Origin: an uncultured Stakelama sp.
GTDB taxonomy: Bacteria > Pseudomonadota > Alphaproteobacteria > Sphingomonadales > Sphingomonadaceae
Reading direction: 5' to 3'
Length of the DNA stretch: 64,000 nucleotides
Assembly (NCBI GenBank): GCA_964639855.1
Contig: CAZXFY010000013.1
Span: 6,756-70,755, forward strand
A model generated the notes under the pieces. That model was not told the origin of the DNA, made no database searches, and saw only the letters and a list, made by a program, of their open reading frames with translations. Of the stretch, positions 8,824 through 30,422 are shown one piece after another. The position numbers were made by a program, and so were the translations under genes. How positions within the stretch are numbered: position 1 is the first letter of the stretch; each line of letters opens with the position of its first letter.

Positions 8824-8908
8824 GAAGATGCAGGATCGATCATGGCATGCATGGGATAGACCTCTTTCGGCTTGGGGGGAACGCCGCGGGCGTCTATCGT
8901 TTGCGTCG

Positions 8909-14292: not shown

Positions 14293-14317
14293 AACGGTGC
14301 GGGCGGACACTGGTTCC
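14293..14317 (-). promoter_or_regulatory. Candidate EcfG/sigma-T-type promoter upstream of phoH
   Basis: The minus strand reads GGAAC-CAGTGTCCGCCCGCAC(16)-CGTT, 68 nt upstream of the ATG. A single hit could be chance. Confidence 0.4.
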
Positions 14318-23994: not shown

Positions 23995-24115
23995 CGTCAT
24001 GCTGAGCGTGTTTCGGCATCCATCATGGTTTTGGGGCAATGAGTTGTCGTTGCTGCGCCTCCATCCATGCCAAGGAAGAAGCATGGATGGACCTTGAAAC
24101 AAGTTCAGGGTGACG
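23995..24115. repeat. Long CGTC-type REP dimer
   Basis: cgtcatgctgagcgtgtttcggcatcc ... ggaccttgaaacaagttcagggtgacg; same subfamily as 42394-42492. Confidence 0.88.
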
Positions 24116-24136
24116 GCGGGGGTATAATCCACCATC

Positions 24137-24180
24137 AAGAAAAAAGGGCGGCCCCCGCGCGGGAGCCGCCCCTTCTTTTG
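24137..24180. terminator. Bidirectional-looking terminator downstream of rplL
   Basis: aagaaaaaa-gggcggc...gccgccc-cttctttt. Confidence 0.75.
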
Positions 24181-24223
24181 CTCTCGCTCCCGGATCGGTC
24201 CGGGACGAAGCAAGCCTTGCGGC

Positions 24224-24607
24224 TTACTTCAGCTCGACCGTGCCGCCCGCGGCCTCGATCTGCGCCTTGAGCTTTTCGGCCTCGTCCTTCGACACGCCTT
24301 CCTTGACGGCCTTGGGCGCGCCCTCGACCAGCGCCTTCGCCTCGGTGAGGCCGAGGCCGGTGATCGCGCGGACCTCCTTGATGACGTTGATCTTCTTGCC
24401 GCCGTCGCCGGTCAGGATGACGTCGAACTCGTCCTTCGCCTCGGCAGCGGCCTCGCCACCGCCGGCGCCGCCGGCCGCGGGGCCGGCAACCGCGACCGCA
24501 GCCGCGGCCGAAACGCCCCACTTCTCTTCGAGAAGCTTGGCAAGGTCCGCCGCCTCGAGGACGGTCAGTTCGGAAAGCTGGTCAACGAGCTTGTTCAGGT
24601 CTGCCAT
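24224..24607 (-). CDS. rplL: 50S ribosomal protein L7/L12
   Basis: [44 protein letters not shown]. Confidence 0.98.
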
Positions 24608-24624
24608 TGTTCAATTCCTCAAAT

Positions 24625-24688
24625 CGTCACCCCAGCGAAAGCTGGGGTCTTTCAGTTCAACGAGACCCCAGCTTTCGCTGGGGTGACG
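24625..24688. repeat. Short CGTC-type REP dimer in the rplJ-rplL spacer
   Basis: cgtcaccccagcgaaagctggggtct ... agaccccagctttcgctggggtgacg. Confidence 0.93.
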
Positions 24689-24698
24689 GTTGTTCAGT

Positions 24699-25214
24699 TC
24701 AGGCCGCTTCCTTGGCGCCCTGGGCGGCGAACACGCGCGCGAGCTTCGATGCCGGAGCGGTCGAAAGCTGGGCGATCTTGGTCGCGGGCGCCTGGACGAG
24801 GCCCATGATCTTGGCGCGCAGCTCGTCGAGCGACGGCAGCGAGGCGAGTGCGTTCACACCCTTGACGTCGAGGATCGTCGCGCCCATCGCCCCGCCCACG
24901 ATTTCCAACTTGTCGTTGGTCTTCGCGAAATCCGTCACCACCTTGGCGGCGGCGACCGGATCGGACGAGGTTGCAAGGCCTACCGGGCCGGTCAGCAGGT
25001 CGCTGATCCCGGCATAATCGGTGTCCTCGAGCGCGATCTTGGCAAGCCGGTTCTTCGCGACCTTGTAGCTGGCGCCGGCCTCACGCATCTTGTTACGAAG
25101 CTCGGTCGATTGCGCGACGGTGAGCCCGAGGTTGCGGGTGACGACCACCACGCCGACCTCGTTGAAGGTGCGGTTCAGCTCGGCAACGGCCTCGGTCTTT
25201 TGAGCACGATCCAT
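24699..25214 (-). CDS. rplJ: 50S ribosomal protein L10
   Basis: [38 protein letters not shown]. Start at ATG 25214 with SD ggag. Confidence 0.97.
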
Positions 25215-25364
25215 GCCATTCTCCACGTTTGGCGATCCCGAAGGATCACCGGTTACACGCCGGGCAAAGGGCAAGGGCCCTGCACCCGGTTTGTCCAGCG
25301 ATGGGGAATGGGCGCCGCATGGCAGCGGCAGACCGGCGCGCGGGGCGGCCGGTGAAATCCTTTT

Positions 25365-25420
25365 CCCCGTCTCGGCGGGAAATTAAGCCTGTGAAGGGCA
25401 CCCGCTGTCTCGGACGGCGA
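25365..25420 (-). ncRNA. L10 leader (rplJ autoregulatory structure)
   Basis: The minus strand reads CCGTCCGAGACAGCGGGTG...TTAATTTCCCGCCGAGACGG, matching the general L10-leader layout, in the rplJ 5' UTR. Confidence 0.75.
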
Positions 25421-25449
25421 CCGGAATCAGCGTCCCGGTCGAGCGCAGC

Positions 25450-25477
25450 CCTCTAGCGCGTTCGGCCGGCAAGTCAA
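25450..25477 (-). promoter_or_regulatory. Sigma70-type promoter for rplJL
   Basis: TTGACT-N16-TAGAGG (GCTAGA context), just upstream of the L10 leader. Confidence 0.6.
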
Positions 25478-25588
25478 CCGCGATCGCTTGCGATCTGCCG
25501 CGCAGCACGCGAAACGCACGGGCCGAGAAAGGCAGGAGCGATCCTCGAACGACGATCGCATTGCTTTTTGCCATCTGCGGCGAGCACG

Positions 25589-25623
25589 AAAAAAAAGCCC
25601 CGCGATCATCGATCGCGGGGCTT
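25589..25623 (-). terminator. Terminator of small-protein copy 1
   Basis: aagccccgcgatc-atc-gatcgcggggctt with an A8 run. Confidence 0.85.
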
Positions 25624-25643
25624 CCATATCGGTTGCGCGTCGA

Positions 25644-25934
25644 TCAGCCCGCGCTGTCGGGCTCGTCGTCGCCGTCGGTCGCGACGATGACGCCGGCGAT
25701 AACCGCACCGGCTGCGAGCACGCCGACGCCGATCGCAGCGCCCTGGCTGATCGCGTTGCTCTTCTTCTTGAGCTTGGTCGCGGTCCGGAGGCCGTTGGTC
25801 GGTGCCTGAGCCGTCTGCACTCCCGCGACGGGGAGCGCGCTGCTCGACCGCGTGGCGTCGGCCGCGAAGGCCGCCGTCGAGGTGAGCAGGCAGGCAATAG
25901 CACCAAGGCCGGCGGCGTACTTTCTCCGAGTCAT
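25644..25934 (-). CDS. Small secreted/membrane protein, paralog 1 of 4 (96 aa)
   Basis: MTRRKYAAGLGAIACLLTSTAAFA|ADATRS...GLRTATKLKKKSNA-hydrophobic segment-DGDDEPDSAG; SD gggag. Confidence 0.88.
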   Translation of the reverse strand: MTRRKYAAGLGAIACLLTSTAAFAADATRSSSALPVAGVQTAQAPTNGLRTATKLKKKSNAISQGAAIGVGVLAAGAVIAGVIVATDGDDEPDSAG

Positions 25935-25985
25935 CGTCGTCTCCCTTTGGATAGGTTGCAGGGCGAAATACTCCTCTGGCCGGTA

Positions 25986-26010
25986 AACGCAAGGGGTTTT
26001 TGCTTGTTCC
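25986..26010 (-). promoter_or_regulatory. EcfG/sigma-T-type promoter of copy 1
   Basis: GGAAC-AAGCAAAAACCCCTTG(16)-CGTT, 52 nt upstream of the ATG. Confidence 0.75.
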
Positions 26011-26204
26011 CCATCCATATGGGATGAATCGGTGCGCCCGGGCCACATGCCGAGAGGCGCGGCATCGCAACGCGCAACGTCAACGGGCGGCATGCTCCGG
26101 CGGGCATTCGGGACCAGCACGTCGCGCGCATCGTCAGAACGATCAATTACCGATCGGCGGGGCTGCGCAGCGTCGTTCTTCGGCGCCCGGCTCGAACGGA
26201 TGCG

Positions 26205-26236
26205 AAAGGCCCTGCGATCGCGTGGATCGCAGGGCC
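26205..26236 (-). terminator. Terminator-like hairpin of copy 2
   Basis: ggccctgcgatc-gcgtg-gatcgcagggcc, a perfect 12-bp stem with only a short A run. Confidence 0.7.
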
Positions 26237-26267
26237 AGCGTTTTCCGACCGGTGCCTGTGCGTCGGA

Positions 26268-26570
26268 TCAGCCCGGGCTGTCGGGTCCGTCGTCGTCGTC
26301 ATCGAGTGCGACGTAGACGCCCGTTCCGACCGCGGCGATCCCGATGATGCTGAGCGCGATCACGCCGTCCTGGCCCAATGCGTTGCTCTTCTTCTTGAGC
26401 TTGGTCGCGGTCCGAAGACCGTTGACCGGCGCGGGCGCCGTCTGCGCGATCGGGACGGGGAGCGCGCTGCTCGACCGCGTGGCGTCGGCCGCGAAGGCCG
26501 CCGTCGAGGTGAGCAGGCAAGCAATCGCTCCAAGGCCGGCGGCATACATTCTCGTCGTGCGAATCATCAT
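26268..26570 (-). CDS. Small secreted/membrane protein, paralog 2 of 4 (100 aa)
   Basis: Same leader, GLRTATKLKKKSNA, hydrophobic segment, and DDDDDGPDSPG. Confidence 0.88.
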   Translation of the reverse strand: MMIRTTRMYAAGLGAIACLLTSTAAFAADATRSSSALPVPIAQTAPAPVNGLRTATKLKKKSNALGQDGVIALSIIGIAAVGTGVYVALDDDDDGPDSPG

Positions 26571-26617
26571 CGTCTCCCTTTCCGATGGGGTCGTCGGGCG
26601 GAACTCCTGATCGCGAT

Positions 26618-26642
26618 AACGCGATGAGTCCAGGCTTGTTCC
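26618..26642 (-). promoter_or_regulatory. EcfG/sigma-T-type promoter of copy 2
   Basis: GGAAC-AAGCCTGGACTCATCG(16)-CGTT, 48 nt upstream of the ATG. Confidence 0.75.
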
Positions 26643-26657
26643 ACGCGATCAGGGTGT

Positions 26658-26688
26658 AAAAAGCCCTGCGATGGCGCCACCGCAGGGC
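26658..26688 (-). terminator. Terminator of copy 3
   Basis: aaaaa-gccctgcg...cgcagggc. Confidence 0.7.
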
Positions 26689-26711
26689 CCTTGAGAATCG
26701 CTTGCGCCCGA

Positions 26712-27002
26712 TCAGCCGGGGCTGTCGGCATCGTCGTCGTCGGCCACGACGACGATCGCGGCCCCGACCGCCACCGCGCCCAGGATGCCGACGGCGATCA
26801 TCGCATCCCGGTTCAGCGCGTTGCTCTTCTTCTTGAGCGTGGTCGAAGACCGAAGCCCTTGCGTCGGCGCATGCGTCCCCGGTTGCGCAACCGGATTGAG
26901 GAGCGCGCTGCCCGATCGCGTCGCATCGGCAGCGAAGGCTGCGGTGGAGGCGAGCAGGCACGTGATCGCTCCCAGGCCGGCGGCGTACTTTGTAAGGGTC
27001 AT
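26712..27002 (-). CDS. Small secreted/membrane protein, paralog 3 of 4 (96 aa)
   Basis: KYAAGLGAITCLLASTAAFA, GLRSSTTLKKKSNA, hydrophobic segment, and DDDDADSPG. Confidence 0.88.
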   Translation of the reverse strand: MTLTKYAAGLGAITCLLASTAAFAADATRSGSALLNPVAQPGTHAPTQGLRSSTTLKKKSNALNRDAMIAVGILGAVAVGAAIVVVADDDDADSPG

Positions 27003-27049
27003 CGTCGTCTCCCGTTGGTTGGCTCCAGAGCCTAGTTCATCCCCACGTA

Positions 27050-27074
27050 AACGCGAAGGGTTTTCGGTGGTTCC
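27050..27074 (-). promoter_or_regulatory. EcfG/sigma-T-type promoter of copy 3
   Basis: GGAAC-CACCGAAAACCCTTCG(16)-CGTT, 48 nt upstream of the ATG. Confidence 0.75.
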
Positions 27075-27165
27075 ACCTCGTTTCGCGACGAAAACGACCC
27101 TTCGGTTCGTGCGATCCCGCGCGGCGTCATTGCCGGAATGCCGCGGCGGGAGGCGCAGGAATACG

Positions 27166-27198
27166 AAAAAGGCCCCGCGATCTTCCGACAGCGGGGCC
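27166..27198 (-). terminator. Terminator of copy 4
   Basis: aaaaa-ggccccgc...gcggggcc. Confidence 0.7.
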
Positions 27199-27221
27199 CC
27201 TTGAATTCGCTCGTGGACCGA

Positions 27222-27506
27222 TCAGCCCGCGCTGTCGGGCTCGTCGTCCTGCGTCGCGACCAGAATCCCGCCTCCCACGACGACCGCGCCGATGAGGCCG
27301 ACGCCGATCCATTCGTTTCCGGTGAGCTTGCTCTTCTTCTCGAGCTTGGTCGCGGTCCGGACGCTGCTGGTCGGCGCCGCCTGAACCTGTGCCGCCGGGG
27401 CGGGCAGCGCGCTGGCCGACCGCGTGGCGTCGGCCGCAAAGGCCGCCGTCGAGGTGAGCAGACACGCGATCGCACCGAGCCCGGCCGCGTACTTCATCCG
27501 AGTCAT
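27222..27506 (-). CDS. Small secreted/membrane protein, paralog 4 of 4 (94 aa)
   Basis: MTRMKYAAGLGAIACLLTSTAAFA, VRTATKLEKKSKL, hydrophobic segment, and QDDEPDSAG. Confidence 0.88.
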   Translation of the reverse strand: MTRMKYAAGLGAIACLLTSTAAFAADATRSASALPAPAAQVQAAPTSSVRTATKLEKKSKLTGNEWIGVGLIGAVVVGGGILVATQDDEPDSAG

Positions 27507-27704
27507 TTGGTTTCCCCTTTTCTTGAATATATTGGATGGCGGGATACTCGTCTCGGCGGCGGACGCAAGGGGTTTCTGCTTGTGCGCCATCGATTTGGCA
27601 AACCACCGGTGCAGTCATGTCACATCCGCAACGTCCCCCCGTCGCTCGGGCAAACCGCTCTTCCGCATTGCAGGGCGGCGGGCGTCGATGATAGCCGGCA
27701 CGGC

Positions 27705-28709
27705 ATGAAGAGGGGTCGAGTTCGCCTGTTCGTCTGCCTTCTGGGCGTATGCGTGATGGTCGCGCCGGTCGGTGGCGGCGCCCGCGCGCATCCGCCCGAG
27801 CGCGATCGGCAGGCGCTGTTCGCCGGGTTGCGCGCCGCGGACCTGCGGCTGGCGACGATCGCCTATCGGCTGATGGTCGCCAATGTCGCGCTCTGCGATC
27901 GGCGCGCGGGCGCGACCGGCCTCGTTCTCCACGCGCTCGATTCGTACGATTCGGATGTCCGGGCCGATGCACGGCGCTATTTCCGATTCGAAACGCCGAT
28001 CGCGATCGAGGCTGTCGTTGCGGGAAGCCCGGCCGCGCGCGCCGGTGCCGCCGCCGACCAGTCGGTCGCCGCGATCGACGGCGCCTCCACGCGCGAGGGC
28101 GGGCTGTCGCTCGACGAGGTCCGCGCCCGCCTGGCCGCGATTCCGCCGCGGGGCGCGCTCTCGCTCGCGGTGACGAGCGGCGGGCGCGCGCACCGGCTGA
28201 CGATCGCCGCGGTTCCCGCCTGCGCCGGCCGCGCCGAGCTCAAGCTCACCGACGACCTCAACGCCGCGACCGACGGGCTCGTGCTCCAGGTCAATTCGGC
28301 GATGCTCAACGTGATCGGCGAGGATGACGAGCTCGCCGCGCTCGTCGCGCACGAGCTCGCGCATATTGTGCTCCGCCATCCCGAGCGGCTCACCGCGGCG
28401 CATGTCTCGCGCGGCATGTTCAGCATCTTCGGCCGCAACGCGCGGCTGATCCGCAGGACCGAGATCGAGGCCGACCGGCTGAGCGTCGTGCTGCTCGCCA
28501 ATGCGGGCTACGATCCGCGCGCCGCCGTGCGATTGTGGCGCCGCCACGGCGAGGCGCTGGGCGACGGCGGCCTGCTCGCGGGCACGACGCATCTCGACCT
28601 CGAGGACCGGATCGCGCTGGTCGAGCGCGAGGCGGCGCTGATCCCGCCCGACGGCCCGCGCCCGATCGTGCCCCAGTGGATCGAGAGCCGCACGCAGCCG
28701 CTCGACTGA
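27705..28709 (+). CDS. Secreted PDZ + M48-family zinc metallopeptidase
   Basis: Signal peptide, PDZ-like IEAVVAGSPAARAG, HELAH zinc motif, EIEADR third-ligand motif, AGYDP, and a THx motif. Start at ATG 27705. Confidence 0.85.
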   Translation: MKRGRVRLFVCLLGVCVMVAPVGGGARAHPPERDRQALFAGLRAADLRLATIAYRLMVANVALCDRRAGATGLVLHALDSYDSDVRADARRYFRFETPIAIEAVVAGSPAARAGAAADQSVAAIDGASTREGGLSLDEVRARLAAIPPRGALSLAVTSGGRAHRLTIAAVPACAGRAELKLTDDLNAATDGLVLQVNSAMLNVIGEDDELAALVAHELAHIVLRHPERLTAAHVSRGMFSIFGRNARLIRRTEIEADRLSVVLLANAGYDPRAAVRLWRRHGEALGDGGLLAGTTHLDLEDRIALVEREAALIPPDGPRPIVPQWIESRTQPLD

Positions 28710-28775: not shown

Positions 28776-30320
28776 ATGATCCGAACGATGCTCTTCGCGC
28801 TCGCCGCGCTGCTGTTCGCGGGTGCCGTGCAGGCGGAGAAGCCGCTGCCGCGCCTCGATGGGCGCCACCTGATCGTGGACGGCGCGCCCTGGCTGCTGCT
28901 GGGCGGCGAGCTTGCCAATTCGAGCGCATCGAGCCGCGCCTGGATGGCGCCGCGCTGGGCCCGGCTCGCGGCGCTTCACCTCAACACCGTGCTGATGCCG
29001 GTGAGCTGGGAGCTGATCGAGCCCGAGGAAGGCCGCTTCGATTTCGCCGCTGTCGATGGCCTCCTCGCCGATGCCCGCGCGCACGATCTGCGCGTCGTGC
29101 TGCTCTGGTTCGGAAGCTGGAAGAATTCGATGTCGAGCTACGTTCCCGCCTGGGTGAAGCGCGATACCGCGCGCTTTCCCCGCGCGCGCACCGCGGACGG
29201 GGCGCCGATCGAGATGCTCTCCCCCTTCGCCCCCGCGAACCGACAGGCGGACGCCCGCGCCTTTGCCGCCTTGATGGCGCACCTCGCCCGAACCGATCCC
29301 GGCCGCACGGTGCTGATGGTCCAGGTCGAGAACGAGATCGGCATGATCCCCGAACCGCGCGATCGCTCCCCGCTCGCGCGCGCCGCCTGGGCGAAGCCCG
29401 TGCCCGAGGGGCTGCCCGGCGCGGGCAAGAGCTGGGCGGAAGCCTATGGCGGCGAGGCGGACGAGGCGTTCATGGCCTGGGCCTATGCCCGCTATACAGG
29501 GCAGGTCGCCGCCGCGGGCAAGCGCGCCTATCCGCTCCCGATGTACGTCAACGCCGCGCTTCCGCGCCCCGGCGCCGCGCCCGGCAGCGGCTATCCCGCC
29601 GCCGGCCCGCTCCCGAAGCTCGCGGCGATCTGGCGCGCGGCGGCGCCCTCGATCGATTTCCTCGCACCCGACATCTATTTCCCCAATTTCGTCGAATGGA
29701 CGACGCGTTACGCCGCGCTCGGCGGGCCCTGGTTCATCCCCGAAGCGAACCGCGCCGGCGCACCCGAGGCGTGCGCGAACGCGCTCTACGCGATCGGCGC
29801 GCTGGATGCGTTCGGCTTCAGCCCCTTCTCGATCGACAGCCTCGCGCCTGGGAAGGACGCCGGCCTCGCCGAATGCTACGCCATGCTCGCGGGCATCGCC
29901 CCGCTGATCCTCGATCGCCAGGGCACCGGCCGCCTCGCCGCCGTCCGCGCGCCCGTCGCCTTCGACGGCACCGCCGATCTCGCCAACCAGGTGTTCACGA
30001 TGGGCGAAACGCGGATCACCGCGCACCTGATCGATCCATGGACCCCGCGCGACGCGCAGCACCCCGAAACCCACGGCGCGATCGTCCTCCAGCTCGGACC
30101 CGACGCCTATCTGATGGCCGGCCGCGGCGTCACCTTCACCTTCGCCCCCGCGGACGGGGAGGGGAAGACGGGCATCCTCGCGATCGACGAGGGCCGCTAC
30201 GAAGACGGCCGCTGGAATCCCGGCCGCCGCCTCAACGGCGACGAAAGCCATCAGGGCCGCCACCTTCGTCTCCCGCCCGACGGCTTCTCGATCCAGCGCG
30301 TGCGGCTGTATCGGTATTAA
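28776..30320 (+). CDS. GH35-like beta-galactosidase with C-terminal DUF5597-type domain, secreted
   Basis: GGELANSSAS, LLWFGSWKNSMSSYVPAWVK, MVQVENEIG, FLAPDIY, WFIPE, NGDESHQG. Confidence 0.82.
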   Translation: MIRTMLFALAALLFAGAVQAEKPLPRLDGRHLIVDGAPWLLLGGELANSSASSRAWMAPRWARLAALHLNTVLMPVSWELIEPEEGRFDFAAVDGLLADARAHDLRVVLLWFGSWKNSMSSYVPAWVKRDTARFPRARTADGAPIEMLSPFAPANRQADARAFAALMAHLARTDPGRTVLMVQVENEIGMIPEPRDRSPLARAAWAKPVPEGLPGAGKSWAEAYGGEADEAFMAWAYARYTGQVAAAGKRAYPLPMYVNAALPRPGAAPGSGYPAAGPLPKLAAIWRAAAPSIDFLAPDIYFPNFVEWTTRYAALGGPWFIPEANRAGAPEACANALYAIGALDAFGFSPFSIDSLAPGKDAGLAECYAMLAGIAPLILDRQGTGRLAAVRAPVAFDGTADLANQVFTMGETRITAHLIDPWTPRDAQHPETHGAIVLQLGPDAYLMAGRGVTFTFAPADGEGKTGILAIDEGRYEDGRWNPGRRLNGDESHQGRHLRLPPDGFSIQRVRLYRY

Positions 30321-30325
30321 CGTCC

Positions 30326-30422
30326 CGTCACCCCGGACGTGTTCCGGGGTCAACCGGAGCACACAAACGGCAAGCCATTGATCGTGCGCAACGGTGGATG
30401 CCGGAACGAGTCCGGTATGACG
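30326..30422. repeat. Long CGTC-type REP dimer
   Basis: cgtcaccccggacgtgttccggggtc ... ggatgccggaacgagtccggtatgacg. Confidence 0.88.

Follow-up and report, generated by a model that had tools for sequence, protein, structure and literature searches.

Four tandem genes for small envelope proteins and a divergent PDZ-M48 peptidase gene in an uncultured Stakelama sp.: a putative protease-partner pair

What are the products of four small, similar genes that lie in tandem and match no named protein family, and with what do they act? The question is raised by a 64,000 nt stretch of DNA (referred to here as the window) from an uncultured Stakelama sp. (contig CAZXFY010000013.1, positions 6,756 to 70,755), in which the minus strand from 25644 to 27506 carries four co-oriented paralogous genes, c1 to c4, with products of 94–100 aa. 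With about even confidence, and on sequence evidence, these products are best read as bitopic mini-proteins of the inner membrane, induced by stress and serving as partners or substrates for a PDZ-M48 metallopeptidase encoded beside them. This suggests that the mini-proteins and the peptidase may form an undescribed protease-partner pair.

The four copies have in common the leader M-x3-4-KYAAGLGAI[AT]CLL[TA]STAAFA/ADATRS, the basic motif [LV]R[TS][AS]TxL[KE]KKS and a D-rich tail ending in DSAG or DSPG. A G/A/V/I-rich segment of approximately 20 aa differs between them, as an earlier sequence-only reading of this DNA had described. Identity to c1 is 63–72% among the copies (alignment A1), with c4 the most divergent of the four. 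Each gene is preceded by a GGGAG-type Shine–Dalgarno sequence; the c2 product is probably 99 aa, translated from the second ATG, a start that gives the Shine–Dalgarno spacing seen in c1. The hydrophobic segment comprises 19–25 residues with a mean Kyte–Doolittle value of 2.2–2.75, rising to 3.5 in relatives. An AlphaFold2 (AF2) model of c1, which is of low confidence (pLDDT 53) and was used for helix boundaries only, places helices at residues 4–30 and 64–87, the remainder being disordered.

Scans of all four proteins against Pfam and NCBIfam gave no significant family match, in agreement with the earlier statement that no named family could be recognized. The strongest scores below threshold were to Asr (14–16 bits, cut-off 50) and DUF680 (13.6 bits, cut-off 24). 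Close relatives, at 54–94% identity, are found in Hephaestia caeni, another Hephaestia, a Sphingomonas metagenome-assembled genome, and soil and other metagenomes, and all carry the database label 'hypothetical protein'. H. caeni DSM 25527 carries a single copy under the same promoter as the array genes. Searching 1.8 billion representative proteins with a profile returned only 65 clusters. The broad profile, A3, has matches in 168 of 301 Sphingomonadaceae genomes, representing 74 of 112 genera, with one to six copies each, which bears out the suspicion that similar small proteins are common in sphingomonads. There were no matches to the family profile in approximately 398 genomes from other alphaproteobacterial families. 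This is an undescribed, Sphingomonadaceae-specific family of envelope mini-proteins of 70–100 aa.

Six members are encoded in the source genome, two of them outside the window: a close fifth paralogue, c5 (G000:C17:2438-2719; L005:1495-1782), and a distant sixth, c6 (G000:C18:14208-14486; L046), which is of the broad-family type and ends in DNDDETPASM. The four-fold array is a local amplification, since the closest relatives (L006–L008, L059 and L060) hold one copy at this position. Tandem pairs or triplets recur at L014, L020, L021, L028 and L062. The last of these, a soil metagenome contig of 2040 nt, has at least two tandem copies, one c2-like followed by one c1-like, next to a KTSC-domain gene and not rplJ; as this is another organism, tandem arrays are not unique to the source genome.

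The architecture of the broad family was taken from an alignment of 40 diverse members (A3). A Sec signal peptide with an AxA site is followed by an R-[AS]-x-A-(L)-P motif and a disordered segment of approximately 35–40 aa, in which an invariant Arg lies about 13 residues before the helix. The Ser just before the helix is mostly conserved (KKKS in the c1–c4 subfamily, SELEGGS in Erythrobacter-type members). The helix is Gly/Ala-rich, with the consensus GxLAAAAVxAGIVVAAD, and is among the better-conserved parts across the wider family. It is followed by a D/N-rich tail of 8–12 aa with a near-invariant Ser 2–4 residues from the C-terminus (S-P-G, S-A-G or S-P). At L050 (G127:C1; 6860 and 15431), in another genus, a basic cluster, NRVKKRRGGGG, is inserted directly ahead of the helix, which shows that a positive patch next to the membrane, on the side predicted to be periplasmic, was gained independently.

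Selection on the duplicates was assessed segment by segment from Nei–Gojobori counts of non-synonymous (pN) and synonymous (pS) differences across the five close paralogues, c1–c4 and c5. The pN/pS ratio is 0.19 for the signal peptide with ADATRS, 0.41 for the basic motif and 0.23 for the tail, and reaches 0.87 in both the linker and the hydrophobic segment. Values of pS are even over the segments (0.33–0.45, about 0.43), and the array copies are old duplicates. Because pS is uniform while pN/pS is low in the leader and tail, the constancy of these parts reflects purifying selection at the protein level; gene conversion as the source of the constant leader is ruled out by the same uniformity (pS approximately 0.43–0.45). 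The pattern of constant leader, variable core and constant tail on which the sequence-only reading rested is therefore real and driven by selection. Its notion of a diversified peptide core is not supported: the segment concerned is a hydrophobic helix that drifts without excess change, is one of the better-conserved parts family-wide and behaves like a membrane anchor. Linker and helix drift within compositional limits, and positive selection is not indicated. It is unusual that the signal peptide should be the best-conserved part of close paralogues. Chance open reading frames (ORFs) in GC-rich DNA are excluded by the selection, the Shine–Dalgarno sequences, the terminators and the homologues found elsewhere, in both genomes and metagenomes.

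Upstream of the genes lies evidence that the sequence-only reading did not use. Perfect EcfG-type promoters precede c1, c2 and c3 at 47–51 nt from the ATG (Table 1), so that each of the three has GGAAC-N16/17-CGTT within approximately 100 bp of the coding sequence, the criterion for EcfG-regulon promoters. In Sphingomonas melonis Fr1 the EcfG motif, GGAAC-N17-20-GTT, is enriched no more than 100 bp from coding starts (PMC6599016). At the orthologous loci L006, L007, L009 and L059 the motif is kept at −67 to −78; at L008 it has one mismatch, and at L060 the −35 element has decayed. The hexamers are retained while the 16-nt spacers diverge. Of 43 upstream regions from the wider family, only 10 contain a perfect motif, the rate in background windows being 1.5%. 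NepR is encoded in the source genome (C16:46909-46995). Because EcfG promoters are present, stress-induced envelope proteins are the simplest reading of the array.

The raw number of perfect motifs in the source genome is uninformative, since the 41 observed match the approximately 43 expected by chance from base composition. The informative sites are those 20–50 nt ahead of a Shine–Dalgarno sequence and an ORF, judged by position and by the gene downstream. Such sites (GGAAC-N16/17-CGTT) precede genes for DUF1328, DUF5670, Hva1_TUDOR, DUF308/HdeD-like, DUF326, DUF2391 and CoA_binding_2 proteins, the first five of which are typical general-stress genes, and the genes so marked form a candidate EcfG regulon of the source strain. 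The same motif also stands ahead of several very acidic hydrophilic mini-proteins, for example at C12:12376, C27:34714 and C31:30438. Three further perfect GGAAC-N15-18-CGTT sequences in the window, at 14293-14317 (−), 8878-8901 (+) and 30319-30345 (−), may be due to chance; the first of these, read 14317..14293, sits 67 nt ahead of a 333-aa ORF.

Divergent from c4, with 198 bp between the starts, is a gene for a 334-aa protein with a signal peptide, a PDZ domain and an M48 zinc metallopeptidase domain. The AF2 model of this protein has a pLDDT of 91. In Foldseek comparisons the catalytic part resembles 3c37 and BepA, and the PDZ part is similar to PDZ domains that bind peptides, namely those of DegP, DegS, DegQ, HtrA2 and CtpA. 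Its relatives are labelled only 'M48 family metallopeptidase' in the databases. PDZ-M48 is found in 181 of the 301 Sphingomonadaceae genomes: both genes are present in 161, the mini-protein family only in 7, M48 only in 20 and neither in 113 (odds ratio 130, uncorrected for phylogeny). By genus, the corresponding numbers among 112 are 71, 3, 7 and 31 (odds ratio 105, likewise uncorrected). The seven family-only genomes include three fragmented assemblies (G137, G170 and G231) and two with borderline E-values (G096 and G256). Genomes of genera g7, g20 and g38 have either both genes or neither.

Gene distances were measured among the 97 genomes with both genes listed. The gap between the M48 gene and a family gene is at most 500 nt in seven of these and at most 10.3 kb in 16. 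The seven close pairs include divergent and co-directional orders (M48 then mini-protein), and adjacency is seen in at least five genera and in two orientations. The divergent pair is retained in every close relative checked (L006–L008, L059 and L060), even with different outer flanks. In most genera the genes around M48 form a conserved polysaccharide block: Ugd, NAD-epimerases, Bac_transf, Wzy_C, Poly_export and Metallophos. In the metagenome contigs L059 and L060, a single-copy orthologue and the divergent M48 gene lie among genes for Ugd, two NAD-epimerases, an RmlA-like NTP transferase, Metallophos, CysQ, CysNC, CysD and Bac_transf; this gene set resembles a surface-polysaccharide locus, the product of which may be sulfated. 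In the source genome, rplJL at one end and a GH35-like/DUF5597 gene at the other take the place of the polysaccharide genes.

These observations suggest how the two products could be connected. Activation of the PhyR–NepR–EcfG general stress response would lead to synthesis of the mini-proteins and their export by Sec, with the signal peptide cut after AFA. The helix would serve as a stop-transfer anchor, giving a type-I bitopic protein in the inner membrane with its disordered basic segment of 35–40 aa in the periplasm and its acidic tail in the cytoplasm. The mini-proteins could then be a stress-induced substrate, tether or modulator of PDZ-M48, which would cleave or bind the periplasmic segment; that segment is the likely substrate or ligand because it is the only part that the periplasmic PDZ-M48 could reach. 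Four-fold tandem amplification may both raise and diversify the dose under stress.

Several points weigh against this mechanism, the first group of which concerns the promoters and the tie to the protease. c4, c5, c6 and most of the distant family members lack a perfect EcfG motif (c5 has a weakened TGAAG-N17-CGTT with two mismatches), so stress control is a trait of the subfamily; the family genes adjacent to M48 in other genera also lack it. Neither odds ratio (130 or 105) takes account of phylogeny. The M48 and family genes are more than 10.3 kb apart in 81 of the 97 genomes, and because the M48 gene is usually in the polysaccharide block, synteny by inheritance may account for some of the linkage. 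PDZ-M48-like proteins (24–36% identity) occur in approximately 11% of other alphaproteobacterial genomes, all without the mini-protein family; at one such non-sphingomonad gene (L065), no analogous small gene was present within 1.5 kb. The distances, the polysaccharide block shared across genera and the occurrence of PDZ-M48 outside Sphingomonadaceae would all be accommodated if the mini-proteins were plain stress-induced small membrane proteins without a functional protease tie, the M48 link being shared ancestry in a lineage-specific polysaccharide block. We consider this improbable, as co-occurrence is still strong at the level of genera, gain and loss are joint within g7, g20 and g38, and adjacency holds in two orientations and with differing flanks, including the rplJL and GH35-like genes of the window.

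The second group of points against a bitopic partner of PDZ-M48 concerns topology. In the c1–c4 subfamily the linker has a net charge of +3 to +5 and the tail −4 to −6, and this arrangement, KKKS before the helix and acidic residues after it, opposes the positive-inside rule. The sequence-only reading had taken these reversed charges as a sign that the proteins may not be simple anchors. The reversal is upheld for the subfamily, but the residues ahead of the helix are acidic in Erythrobacter-type members; both helix flanks are then acidic, and the argument is not family-wide. In addition, the best-conserved residue outside the signal peptide is at the extreme C-terminus, which is predicted to be cytoplasmic and so beyond the reach of a periplasmic PDZ domain, and this fits poorly with the proposed mechanism. 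A near-invariant motif in that position implies recognition of a free end, and the PDZ is structurally of the HtrA/Ctp type that binds C-termini. The DS[AP]G tail might thus be periplasmic, or the protein an outer-membrane oligomer, with the PDZ reading the C-terminus as in DegS and Prc. The charge distribution of the subfamily favours such a C-terminus-out orientation, and the helix is Gly-zipper-like in character. A single, strongly hydrophobic helix behind a canonical cleavable signal peptide, however, predicts N-out, C-in; the C-terminal AG, PG and SP are not the hydrophobic residues that HtrA-type PDZ domains typically bind, and Pfam gave no glycine-zipper match. An inverted or non-inner-membrane topology is accordingly given little credence.

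The sequence-only reading had likened the layout to that of processed peptide precursors, an idea that finds partial support. In favour of this, there is now a candidate dedicated protease, the divergent and co-occurring PDZ-M48; against it, the nearby genes include no modifying enzyme or exporter and the leader is not that of a ribosomally synthesized and post-translationally modified peptide (RiPP). Judged by a non-Sec leader together with a modifying enzyme and/or a peptidase-containing exporter close by, a RiPP precursor was rejected, the leader being canonical Sec and the neighbours being rplJ/rplL, an S15 peptidase, PDZ-M48 and the GH35-like gene. A different form of processing is conceivable, in which the active product is the basic periplasmic segment of approximately 30–35 aa (ADATRS...KLKKKS), cut off at the membrane face by PDZ-M48, with the helix and acidic tail serving as an anchor or sorting domain at the C-terminus that is then discarded. 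Once freed, the peptide would be protective in the periplasm in the manner of Asr, or a signal. A constant leader and tail around a variable middle, a co-occurring and often adjacent periplasmic protease, and the invariant Arg and largely conserved Ser shortly before the helix are all in keeping with this, as is the weak, sub-threshold similarity of three copies to Asr (E 0.02–0.06, 14–16 bits). Against it, the linker is near-neutral (pN/pS 0.87), which would be surprising in an active peptide, the same segment is acidic in Erythrobacter-type members, no exporter or modifying enzyme is among the nearby genes, and the Asr scores fall far under the 50-bit cut-off. Release of such a peptide therefore appears unlikely. 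Asr is also stress-induced and Sec-exported, and its basic, A/T/Q/K-rich periplasmic chain of low complexity undergoes proteolytic processing, but it differs from the mini-proteins in having neither a transmembrane helix nor an acidic tail. Membership of the Asr family (NF033636) was rejected at 14.1–15.7 bits.

The mini-proteins also bear comparison with the PEP-CTERM/exosortase, GlyGly-CTERM/rhombosortase and LPXTG/sortase systems. All have a signal peptide, a short low-complexity 'cargo' and a C-terminal helix beside a conserved motif, and these systems share with the mini-proteins a lineage-specific co-occurrence with one enzyme and frequent placement in polysaccharide loci. In the mini-proteins, by contrast, order and charge are reversed, with the strongest motif after the helix and an acidic, not basic, tail, and the partner is a soluble periplasmic PDZ-M48 and not a polytopic membrane transpeptidase. 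Membership of PEP-CTERM or another CTERM family was rejected: no NCBIfam/TIGRFAM CTERM model matched at E ≤ 10, and the net charge of the tail is −4 to −6. A bolder and rather doubtful proposal is that the mini-proteins and PDZ-M48 make up an undescribed system for the sorting or processing of proteins, found solely in bacteria whose outer membranes contain sphingolipids, in which a C-terminal module (helix, acidic run and S-P/A-G end) is both recognized and processed by a dedicated PDZ-metalloprotease of the periplasm. It is similarly doubtful that such a system, ancestrally part of a surface-polysaccharide locus, was recruited to the general stress response and amplified in the source lineage, as a counterpart of PEP-CTERM/exosortase in function but with other components.

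Other classes were also rejected. The proteins are not lipoproteins, which have an invariant lipobox Cys at position +1, as Cys15 is Phe in the orthologue P0010/L060 and is missing in the wider family; nor are they Tat substrates, as RR is found in c1 and not in c2–c5. Pfam gave neither a glycine-zipper match nor, at 13.6 bits, a DUF680 assignment. The DUF1328/YtjA-like and DUF5670/lmo0937-like proteins are likewise small and hydrophobic, with the same GGAAC-N16/17-CGTT upstream in the source genome, but have no sequence kinship to the mini-proteins and lack the signal peptide, disordered periplasmic segment, acidic C-terminal motif and protease tie.

For a bitopic mini-protein acting with PDZ-M48, the RseA–DegS pair offers a parallel, as it too consists of a single-pass membrane protein and a periplasmic PDZ protease. 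The mini-proteins cannot sequester a sigma factor as RseA does, because only about 10 of their residues would be cytoplasmic. DegS is a serine protease; BepA and LoiP are periplasmic M48 proteases, and BepA, which the M48 fold of the neighbour resembles along with 3c37, has TPR repeats in place of a PDZ domain, whereas the neighbour joins PDZ and M48. By analogy, the mini-proteins would work most like small EcfG-controlled membrane proteins combined with a sorting-domain/enzyme pair or one of the DegS/RseA type. More than half of the sampled Sphingomonadaceae genomes contain the family, yet it is nameless and has no Pfam or NCBIfam model or known function. Near-exclusive co-occurrence with PDZ-M48 gives two unstudied proteins a concrete partner, and the EcfG promoters point to an inducing condition. 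Should the pairing prove functional, bacteria with sphingolipid outer membranes would have a new envelope module of their own, for protease and substrate or for sorting, and the alphaproteobacterial general stress response, the regulon of which is mostly 'hypothetical protein', would gain new effectors.

The elements that flank the array are collected in Table 1. Each of c1–c4 has its own GC-rich hairpin and U-run, and the four are therefore monocistronic units and not an operon. The genes rplJ and rplL sit downstream of the array on the same strand. No sigma-70 promoter was found in a promoter scan, and an Rfam scan of 24000-28000 gave nothing above the gathering score.

Table 1. Positions of the mini-protein genes, their transcription signals and the adjacent peptidase gene in the window
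Feature	Position	Strand	Description
c1	25644..25934	-	96 aa; Sec signal peptide, disordered linker, transmembrane helix, tail DGDDEPDSAG
c2	26268..26570	-	100-aa paralogue; tail DDDDDGPDSPG
c3	26712..27002	-	96-aa paralogue; tail DDDDADSPG
c4	27222..27506	-	94-aa paralogue; KLEKKSK, tail QDDEPDSAG
c1 EcfG-type promoter, GGAAC-N16-CGTT	25986..26010	-	51 nt ahead of ATG
c2 EcfG-type promoter, GGAAC-N16-CGTT	26618..26642	-	Perfect motif
c3 EcfG-type promoter, GGAAC-N16-CGTT	27050..27074	-	Perfect motif
c4 degenerate promoter remnant, CGCAC-N16-CGTC	27562..27586	-	3 mismatches to EcfG consensus
c1 intrinsic terminator	25593..25625	-	15-bp stem, U8, -30.4 kcal/mol, z -5.3
c2 terminator-like hairpin	26208..26236	-	12-bp stem, U3 only, z -4.0
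c3 terminator hairpin	26655..26692	-	Followed by U5, z -2.1
c4 terminator hairpin	27165..27202	-	Followed by U5, z -3.3
Secreted PDZ + M48 zinc metallopeptidase, HELAH	27705..28709	+	Pfam M48, PDZ_6; candidate partner or processing enzyme

Ahead of c1, the 5' untranslated region (UTR) of approximately 50 nt between the −10 element and the Shine–Dalgarno sequence (25935-25985) is conserved beyond the promoter hexamers in comparison with L059:5950-6000 and L060:5950-6000. The pattern common to c1 and its orthologues is …AGTATTTCGCC.TG.AAC..AT.CAAAGGGAGACGACGATG, and this conserved 5' UTR may be a regulatory element.

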